IMG/VR virus record: IMGVR_UViG_3300044712_000991
Coordinates: 64,001-128,000 of that record
From: a virus
DNA length: 64,000 bases
Direction: 5' to 3' (one strand)
Made by a program: the position numbers and the translations under genes. Positions 63,057 through 63,837 of the stretch are shown here, piece by piece. Below the pieces are notes generated by a model that had not been told where the DNA came from, ran no database searches, and saw only the letters and a list, made by a program, of their open reading frames with translations. Within the stretch, counting starts at the first letter, position 1, and the number at the start of each line of letters is the position of its first letter.

Positions 63057-63085
63057 AATATACAACACTCGGGGCTGAAAGTCAA
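63057..63085 (-). promoter_or_regulatory. Early sigma70-type promoter
   Basis: TTGACT-17 bp-TATATT. Confidence 0.8.
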
Positions 63086-63267: not shown

Positions 63268-63296
63268 AATATACAACAGCCAGATATGAAAGTCAA
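63268..63296 (-). promoter_or_regulatory. Early sigma70-type promoter
   Basis: TTGACT-17 bp-TATATT. Confidence 0.8.
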
Positions 63297-63323
63297 GTGA
63301 AAAATGAAGAATCTTTGGAGGGG

Positions 63324-63396
63324 AGCCACCGGAGGGACTTGAACCCCCGACCCGCGCATTACAGGTGCGCCGCTCTACCAACTGAGCTACAGTGGC
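63324..63396 (-). tRNA. tRNA-Thr(UGU)
   Basis: Cloverleaf; anticodon arm GCGCA-CCTGTAA-TGCGC (C33); CCA not encoded. Confidence 0.9.
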
Positions 63397-63402
63397 TAGA
63401 AT

Positions 63403-63566
63403 CACAAGAGGCACCGGTGGTGGAACAGTCCAATAAAGGGGTAGATGGTACTTGAAACCATCGTCGTGTTACTGGCTTGCGCCCTGCTCCTCGGTTTTTG
63501 CCGAGGACTCCTCGGAGCCCGTATGCACTACACGCATCCACCGTTCGTGGCTACCGGCCTCTTGTG
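63403..63566 (-). ncRNA. Candidate 164-nt structured ncRNA
   Basis: 10-bp closing stem CACAAGAGGC/GCCTCTTGTG, further stacked helices, a GCAA tetraloop and a T-loop-like hairpin. Confidence 0.6.
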
Positions 63567-63583
63567 CTTGAAATACACCCAGG

Positions 63584-63757
63584 GCTGTGGCGGGATTTCA
63601 CTCGCAACTCCACACCCTGCCTAGCCATTCGGCCACCTCCCTTCGTACGACCGGGAGCGGGGGATTCGAACCCACCATACTAAGTGTGTCTGTTATCTTT
63701 GTTCCGCTCCTCATCTCGTACCCGAATGGTACGCGAGGTTACGTCTAACCCCACAGC
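63584..63757 (-). ncRNA. Candidate 174-nt ncRNA with a circularly permuted tRNA-like (YrlA-type) domain at 63611-63688
   Basis: Order T-arm, loop-capped acceptor stem, D-arm, closed by CACACTT/GGGTGTG; outer stem GCTGTGG/CCACAGC. Confidence 0.65.
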
Positions 63758-63760
63758 ATG

Positions 63761-63837
63761 TGGTCGGAGCGACACGACTTGAACGTGCGGCCACTCGCTC
63801 CCAAAGCGAGTGCTCTACCGGGCTGAGCTACGCTCCG
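63761..63837 (-). tRNA. tRNA-Pro(UGG)
   Basis: CGGAGCG acceptor; anticodon arm CTCGC-TTTGGGA-GCGAG; CCA encoded. Confidence 0.95.

Follow-up and report, generated by a model that had tools for sequence, protein, structure and literature searches.

A structured RNA element between two tRNA genes of a large phage and its likeness to the stable RNAs of T4 and T5

Element B occupies 164 nucleotides (nt) of the minus strand at positions 63403-63566 of the window, the 64,000-nt stretch of viral DNA analysed here as a whole, which corresponds to bases 64001-128000 of the IMG/VR record of an uncultured phage (IMGVR_UViG_3300044712_000991; 194,278 bp, rated complete). The element is poor in open reading frames (ORFs) and lies within a cluster of transfer RNA (tRNA) genes, between a tRNA mimic, element A, and a gene read as tRNA-Thr. 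On its best reading, B appears to be an RNA of the same kind as species 1 and 2 of phage T4 and the stable RNAs of phage T5, the likeness being one of shared context and architecture, that is, of kind and not of sequence family. More fully, it would be an orphan RNA that is co-transcribed with the tRNAs, freed by their processing and stabilised by a terminal stalk, a proposal to which we give an even chance of being right. It draws on the sequence features of B, its thermodynamic structure, the absence of coding potential and its paralogy with a second element of the same genome, C, all of which were observed.

Fold of element B and its T-arm-like hairpin

Folded alone, B reached a minimum free energy (MFE) of -68.8 kcal/mol (z-score -4.41), and none of 200 shuffled sequences was as stable, which bears out the structured RNA proposed in an earlier, preliminary description of this DNA. 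The fold was retained inside the 363-nt inter-tRNA context, where A and B formed separate domains. As that description had also stated, B ends 6 nt before the first base (G1) of tRNA-Thr and begins 17 nt after A, and the two elements together fill the entire gap between the tRNAs. The ends of B, CACAAGAGGC/GCCUCUUGUG (63566-63557 / 63412-63403), form a perfect 10-bp terminal inverted repeat. In the partition function, pair probabilities of 0.85-1.0 were obtained for the 14-bp stalk, the first hairpin, the GCAA hairpin and the T-like hairpin. The features of B are as follows.

63553..63566, minus strand: 5' strand of the stalk P1 (B nt 1-14), containing CACAAGAGG, which is common to C; pair probability 0.85-1.0.
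63403..63418, minus strand: 3' strand of P1 (B nt 149-164), with a 2-nt bulge (G153, U154); present in the MFE structure and in the ensemble.
63538..63550, minus strand: hairpin H1, CCAC-GAACG-GUGG, with GUAG before it (the shared GUAGCC motif); pair probability 0.9.
63530..63534, minus strand: CGUGU, common to C; may form a long-range stem as the 5' partner of ACACG (63465-63469).
63489..63515, minus strand: the trio CCGAGG/CCUCGG/CCGAGG (B nt 52-78), the middle member of which can pair with either neighbour.
63474..63483, minus strand: hairpin GGC-GCAA-GCC with a GNRA tetraloop; pair probability 0.98.
63444..63462, minus strand: T-arm-like hairpin GAUGGU-UUCAAGU-ACCAUC; pair probability 1.0.
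63422..63428, minus strand: CUGUUCC/ACUGUUC segment; MFE partner GGAGCAG (63484-63490), probability 0.96; alternative partner GAACGGU (63540-63546), at +2.7 kcal/mol.

All the helices and hairpins named in the preliminary description (CGGU/ACCG, GAACGGU/ACUGUUC, CGUGU/ACACG, GGC-GCAA-GCC, GAUGGU-UUCAAGU-ACCAUC, and CCUCGG with two copies of CCGAGG) were located in the sequence. As a fold, that description was partly upheld: its stalk, GCAA hairpin and T-like hairpin belong to the high-probability part of the structure, but GAACGGU/ACUGUUC and CGUGU/ACACG lie outside the MFE and are disfavoured, the former by 2.7 kcal/mol and the latter by about 6-7 kcal/mol when enforced. The two folds suggested for the CCUCGG segment are both available, as enforcing its pairing with either CCGAGG copy gave a structure ~3 kcal/mol above the MFE. 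The predicted outer architecture of B is solid, and its interior connectivity appears ambiguous because competing folds lie within about 3-7 kcal/mol.

No credible ORF was found in B, and a small protein was rejected as its product: the element holds just a 22-codon ORF, without a usable ribosome-binding site. For pairing of B with A, the tRNAs or transfer-messenger RNA (tmRNA), the calculated duplex energies were not above those of shuffled sequences.

The loop of the T-arm-like hairpin, UUCAAGU, has the same sequence as the T-loops of the two flanking tRNAs, tRNA-Pro and tRNA-Thr. A census over both strands of the genome (388 kb) for hairpins of the T-loop type, with loop TTCRANY on a stem of 5 bp or more, returned 14, nine of them in tRNA or tmRNA genes, one in B and four elsewhere, where ~0.002 would be expected per 164 nt. 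The hairpin of B is unlikely to have arisen by chance, because its loop is that of both neighbours and because hairpins of this type rarely occur outside the tRNA and tmRNA genes of the genome. In R1, a single-sequence covariance model of B, positions 102-123, which cover this hairpin, aligned weakly to real tRNA T-arms. Another T-loop-type hairpin, UCUACG-UUCAAGU-CGUGGG, was observed just before the start of the window (genome 63491-63509, minus strand), at the 3' end of a 411-residue ORF and outside any predicted tRNA.

Likeness to the T4 and T5 stable RNAs, and the paralogue C

In phage T4, tRNA-Arg, rnaD (119 nt) and rnaC (139 nt) follow one another in tandem, with gaps of 1 and 6 nt. The T4 primary transcript gives rise to eight tRNAs as well as the species I and II RNAs (PMC2330249). 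Like B, species 1 (rnaC) and species 2 (rnaD) lie inside a tRNA cluster, on the strand of the tRNAs and a few nucleotides from one of them. The predicted fold of rnaC comprises a closing stem, hairpins and a T-arm (z -4.57), and no Rfam family covers either T4 RNA. There are differences as well: the T-arm of rnaC is canonical, G-C-closed and placed beside the closing stem, whereas that of B closes with U-A and lies 25 nt away, and the T4 RNAs are found at the end of their cluster, unlike B, which sits between two tRNAs.

The tRNA region of phage T5 contains a series of RNAs annotated as 'stable RNA with unknown functions', some of them tRNA-like, which adjoin tRNAs. They include RNAI, RNAIII, RNAIV and RNA2H and the tRNA-like RNA1, RNA2 and RNA3, with a tandem run of RNA1-RNAI-RNAIII-tRNA-His. 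As in B, the folds of RNAIII and RNAIV are stalk-closed with multiple hairpins, and T-arms are present in RNA1 and RNA2. Compared with B, the T5 RNAs are shorter, and they are AT-rich; their accumulation is experimental according to the record annotation, while that of B is predicted. Neither sequence comparison nor R1 gave any significant similarity between B and the tRNA-region RNAs of T4 or T5. What B has in common with them is that it is non-coding, lies on the tRNA strand within a tRNA cluster and adjoins a tRNA; ends paired in a closing helix, a tRNA-like arm, or both, are likewise found in rnaC, RNAIII, RNAIV, RNA1 and RNA2.

A course for the transcription, processing, stability and function of B can be proposed. 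The element would be transcribed from an upstream TTGACT-N17-TATATT promoter together with small ORFs, tRNA-Pro, A and tRNA-Thr. Co-transcription and release by tRNA processing, which the preliminary description had also put forward, are what we infer from the position of B on the same strand as all genes, from its adjoining tRNA-Thr, and from inspection of the RNA block, where tRNA-Pro, A, B and tRNA-Thr follow one another with no promoter-like or terminator-like site in between. RNase P cleaves at the 5' ends of tRNAs, and a cut of this type at tRNA-Thr, 6 nt past the stalk, would create the 3' end of B. A putative endonuclease cut in the 17-nt A-B linker, which has a U-rich centre, would create the 5' end. 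The 14-bp stalk formed from both ends would then shield B from exonucleases and leave a stable RNA of ~165-170 nt. The likeliest role of such an RNA would be that of a mimic or decoy, offering its tRNA-like T-arm and further loops to a host factor that handles tRNAs; this conjectured presentation is the weakest step of the model.

Element C is a 190-nt, ORF-free segment outside the window (genome 157315-157504, minus strand; L026:516-705:-). It exactly fills the gap between tRNA-Met and tRNA-Val, which is the only other long non-coding tRNA-tRNA spacer in the phage, and folds with a 12-bp terminal helix and a multibranched interior (z -2.5). The 5' module of B reads CACAAGAGG-CCG-GUAGCC-AC...GG-AUG-CGUGU and that of C CACAAGAGG-UACA-GUAGCC-GC...GG-AC-CGUGU, giving a common frame, CACAAGAGG-N3/4-GUAGCC-hairpin-CGUGU, over the first 40 nt. 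Compared with the start of C, these 40 nt of B had a z-score of about 5, one of 3000 shuffles being as good, and among ~388,000 windows on both strands the start of C was their best non-self match (score 30). No third copy was detected in the genome. Similarity over the whole length of B and C was not significant; that of the 5' module alone was. The argument for paralogy is one of coincidence of position, the margin in score being thin.

Pairing in the stalk is kept between B and C via two compensatory changes (C-G to U-A and G-C to A-U), with one further, one-sided change (G-C to G.U). In H1, the third pair is A-U in B and G-C in C, so pairing is kept there too. The CGUGU/ACAC sequences are the same in both copies and are therefore uninformative on pairing. 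Two further features recur in both elements: ACAC with a hairpin after it (in B the T-like arm, in C GGC-GAA-GCC), and CCAC-N immediately before the 3' strand of the stalk. Within C, a 9-nt direct repeat, GACCGUGUG, flanks a long hairpin of ~58 nt, as if the hairpin had been inserted.

Taken in order, these parts can be drawn as a colinear cloverleaf-like frame with a large insert (60 nt for B, about 122 nt for C). This frame lies 6.5-7 kcal/mol above the MFE in both elements and is offered as a hypothesis, not as a result. Its parts would be an extended acceptor-like stalk, GUAGCC with the D-position hairpin, CGUGU/ACACG as the anticodon stem and a T-position hairpin. An extension of it, which we consider quite improbable, would make B and C the founding pair of a so far undescribed class of phage RNA cassettes, in which a conserved tRNA-derived scaffold, recognised and trimmed by host tRNA-processing enzymes, would carry interchangeable cargo at the anticodon-loop position. 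The cargo might then be the 60 nt of B, including a possible two-state CCGAGG/CCUCGG/CCGAGG switch, and the about 122 nt of C. A 69-nt inner domain was also observed in the MFE structure of B (nt 77-145, 63422-63490), closed by a 7-bp stem and holding the GCAA hairpin and the T-like arm; positions 78-144 of R1 aligned weakly with T5 tRNA-Trp (7.9 bits, E 0.63). This domain may allow a second, nested tRNA-like reading, as unproven as the first.

Several points weigh against placing B with the T4 and T5 RNAs. The element is structured, yet it is not the most structured window of its genome, ranking 33rd of 4735 by GC-corrected MFE (164-nt windows, whole genome). The plus strand folds equally well (-68.2 kcal/mol, z -3.99); the strand was therefore assigned from context and the T-loop, since stability does not tell the two apart. 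The T-like hairpin, of 6 bp, is closed by U-A and not by G53-C61, and no tRNA-type acceptor/T minihelix is formed: at 25 nt from the 3' strand of the stalk, the hairpin cannot stack on it as in a tRNA. The comparison of B with C is one of two sequences, and its score of 30 is barely above the genome background maximum of 29. BLAST, pattern and covariance-model searches gave no homologue of B outside this genome, and there is therefore no population-level covariation for it; in the comparison with C, compensatory changes keep the stalk and H1 paired. The adjacent downstream 111-residue protein has no relative among 5.8 billion proteins. We also know of no function assigned to the stable RNAs of the T4 and T5 tRNA clusters, which have been known for some fifty years.

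With blastn against 50,697 phage records, the flanking tRNAs alone were matched, and exact and degenerate patterns of the B hairpins were absent from IMG/VR, metagenome contigs and GTDB genome contigs. The pattern of the B/C frame had two matches in IMG/VR, which fall within an AT-rich coding region and are compatible with chance. R1 recovered B alone in its own genome and nothing in C, T4, T5, the other loci or 151 genomes of the candidate host class. Neither A nor B was found at relatives reached through a neighbouring 121-residue protein (18 loci) or the tail sheath (three loci, 66-68% identity). A search with the anticodon arm of tRNA-Thr reached AT-rich contigs that are unrelated and in which the tRNAs are separated by a coding gene. 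The 3' half of tRNA-Pro brought up six viral loci, of which two have a tRNA-Pro(GGG) gene and four the 3' part only, and none has A or B; it also brought up Bacillota chromosomes. The neighbouring proteins gave no functional clue.

Known RNA families and alternative explanations

Rfam scans with 4227 families were run at the gathering score, at E<=10 over a 651-nt region and at E<=10 on B alone. None of these families, including 6S, SRP, YrlA, GOLLD, ROOL, manA, tmRNA and ribozymes, matched B at E<=10, and the family check proposed in the preliminary description was accordingly negative. A permuted or two-piece tmRNA was set aside, as the scan of the 651-nt region returned no such match. A tRNA or tRNA pseudogene was also rejected: ARAGORN at default settings and Rfam reported nothing in B, no tRNA model matched even at E<=10, and ARAGORN at a 70% threshold gave just an implausible 90-nt candidate. 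GOLLD, ROOL and manA are structured phage RNAs of unknown function, often located near tRNA islands (PMC12286853). They resemble B as structured, phage-encoded RNAs near tRNAs and differ in that B matches none of their Rfam models; B is also a fraction of the size of GOLLD, many members of which exceed 800 nt (PMC12286853).

Among the explanations that compete with a tRNA-co-transcribed stable RNA, a passive processing spacer is one we hold to be unlikely. The stalk would juxtapose or insulate the flanking tRNAs, or give a nuclease specific for double strands, for instance RNase III, a place to cut, and the interior would be a functionless by-product. This would fit the stalks of B and C, both ends of which lie 1-6 nt from the flanking tRNAs or linker, and the common part of the two elements, which is the stalk-proximal frame, with interiors that differ; if the third segment of the preliminary description is added, the stalk of B reaches ~21 bp with internal loops. 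The MFE stalk, however, has just 14 bp and is bulged, other tRNA pairs of the same phage stand 11 nt apart without a stalk, and a well-folded interior of ~100 nt with a T-arm and a GNRA loop exceeds what a cleavage site needs. A neutral relic, left by one or two decayed tRNA genes or a lost cluster insert and without present function, seems to us improbable. Relics lose structure, whereas B has a z-score of -4.4 and a perfect 10-bp terminal helix found in no tRNA, its frame is kept in a second copy via compensatory changes, and no tRNA model matches it at E<=10; for the relic speak the loop sequence that the T-arm-like hairpin has in common with its neighbours, the orphan status of B and the poor tRNA-like candidates that relaxed ARAGORN yields in both A and B. 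Similarly improbable is that A and B are two domains of one uncut RNA of ~355 nt, as the preliminary description had allowed. Their separation by 17 nt, the filling of the inter-tRNA gap by the two together and the lack of a promoter-like or terminator-like site between them would be in keeping with a single molecule. Yet A and B fold as independent domains with no pairing between them, the whole 363-nt stretch has a z-score of only -2.0, weaker than that of B alone, the linker is unpaired with a U-rich centre, and both T4 and T5 cut tandem stable RNAs apart.

The remaining candidates are less probable still. A Y-RNA-like (YrlB-type) partner of the tRNA mimic A, which would dock to a host Ro60/Rsr ring, appears very improbable; the preliminary description had listed a second Y-like RNA among its candidates. 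In its favour is the layout of Mycobacterium smegmatis, whose YrlA and YrlB are made from a single precursor and whose YrlB bears a T-arm (PMC4201824): here, too, a tRNA mimic precedes another RNA that has a T-arm and a long stem at its ends. Y RNAs (YrlA RF02553, YrlB) share with B a long stem formed from both ends, a structured interior and a T-arm-like hairpin, and the neighbouring tRNA mimic would probably come from the same precursor, as with YrlA and YrlB of M. smegmatis (PMC4201824). Bacterial Y RNAs carry a GNCGAAN0-1G motif, the proposed Ro60 contact, together with T-like and D-like modules, and have a Ro60 gene within a few kilobases (PMC4201824). In B, the T-like hairpin is present, but the D-arm-like invariant hairpin of the GUAGCUCA...GGUAGAGC type is lacking, GUAGCC and a 4-bp hairpin being all that is found; the GNCGAAN0-1G motif is absent, the nearest sequence being ACGAACG, without the leading G. 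That motif is weak evidence either way, since it also turns up in 22% of shuffled versions of the 363-nt A+B block. The YrlA model scored 17.5 bits (E 0.78) against a gathering score of 69 and did not match B alone; its sole alignment was a chimera of the T-like hairpin of B and the D-arm of tRNA-Thr across a 57-nt insert. No TROVE/Ro60 match was obtained in the whole 194-kb record, in which positive controls worked, no RtcB gene was found in the phage, and TROVE was present in one of the 151 genomes of the candidate host class. An element that acts as DNA, whether a small insertion, palindromic or mobile, bounded by terminal inverted repeats, or a cluster of protein-binding palindromes, is just as improbable as the Y RNA. 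The equal folding of the plus strand, the 10-bp perfect inverted repeat at the termini and the CCGAGG/CCUCGG palindromes would suit it. There are just two copies, though, both in tRNA orientation and exactly filling tRNA-tRNA gaps, and no target-site duplication is seen; only on the minus strand does the T-loop sequence make sense, and the G.U pair in the stalk of C would be a C.A mismatch on the other strand. Least credible is the 6S-like RNA-polymerase decoy of the preliminary description, which has hardly any chance of being correct: the 164-nt size and paired ends of B recall 6S RNA, but no 6S model matched at the gathering score or at E<=10, on B alone included, and both MFE and ensemble give a 14-bp stalk with a multibranched interior, without the central open-promoter-like bubble of a bulged rod.

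Genome setting and significance

The tail sheath and baseplate genes identify the virus as a myovirus. Its closest isolate by tail sheath is Bacillus phage G (27% identity), and the lineage is remote from all isolates. On the minus strand, the order around B is small ORFs, tRNA-Pro(UGG), element A, the 17-nt linker, B, 6 nt, the flanking tRNA and a promoter. The elements beside B are listed below.

63761..63837, minus strand: tRNA-Pro(UGG) with encoded CCA, the upstream end of the RNA block (ARAGORN and Rfam).
63584..63757, minus strand: element A, a tRNA mimic in rotated order, which folds independently of B.
63567..63583, minus strand: 17-nt A-B linker with a U-rich centre (GGGUGUAUUUCAAG...), unpaired in the 363-nt fold.
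63398..63402, minus strand: short linker from the stalk of B to tRNA-Thr, AUUCUA when counted to G1.
63321..63397, minus strand: flanking tRNA, read as Thr(UGU) with C33; Tyr(GUA) by ARAGORN at default settings.

After the flanking tRNA (63321-63397), a TTGACT-N17-TATATT promoter for the next gene was identified. Near-identical promoters, TTGACTTT-N-TGTATATT, precede successive small genes around the RNA block (window 63057-63085 and 63268-63296; L001:2765-2793, minus strand).

The assignment of the flanking tRNA to Thr in the preliminary description was supported by the Rfam alignment and by relaxed ARAGORN, which read Thr(UGU) with C33, and was not supported by ARAGORN at default settings, which reads Tyr(GUA). 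The anticodon arm, GCGCA-CCUGUAA-UGCGC, accommodates Thr(UGU) with C33 or Tyr(GUA) with a shifted stem. U33 is near-universal in tRNAs. An identical arm was observed in unrelated AT-rich phage contigs (L024:3758-3831; L025:3930-4003), and the C33 arm may for this reason be a variant that recurs among phage tRNAs.

Over the 24 nt of its 3' part, the phage tRNA-Pro exactly matches chromosomal tRNA-Pro genes from many Bacillota (Pelotomaculum, Desulfotomaculum, Peptococcaceae, Heliobacteria, Sporomusaceae; loci L042-L121), which gives a weak hint that the host could be an anaerobic member of this phylum. Upstream of the RNA block and beyond the window end, the 121-residue protein used in the searches belongs to PHROG 12224, of unknown function (genome ~128296-128661; L001:2394-2759, minus strand). 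In two of the 18 other viral loci (L014, L016), its relatives lie at most ~4 kb upstream of tRNA genes. The second of these, L016 (IMGVR_UViG_3300014204_000177), contains an 80-nt 'mini-tmRNA' (L016:6851-6930), located 3 nt upstream of a tRNA-Thr, in which CCA is encoded and which aligns to just the two termini of the Rfam tmRNA model (67 bits); L016 also has a match to the type II hammerhead ribozyme (38 bits; L016:4303-4368). Elsewhere in the phage genome and outside the window, a 414-residue ORF (genome 34899-36143, minus strand) matches Pfam RNA_ligase PF09414 (77 bits). A CCA-adding enzyme (PF01743) was not found.

Taken alone, B opens no long-standing question, being an orphan element with a proposed role. 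Each new unrelated example shows that small stable RNAs of tRNA clusters are a general habit among large phages, and B would add one from a lineage whose nearest isolate shares 27% tail-sheath identity. The new point is that two cassettes of one genome have a common stalk-proximal frame and different interiors. This sets a portion that would probably serve processing and stability apart from one that could carry function.

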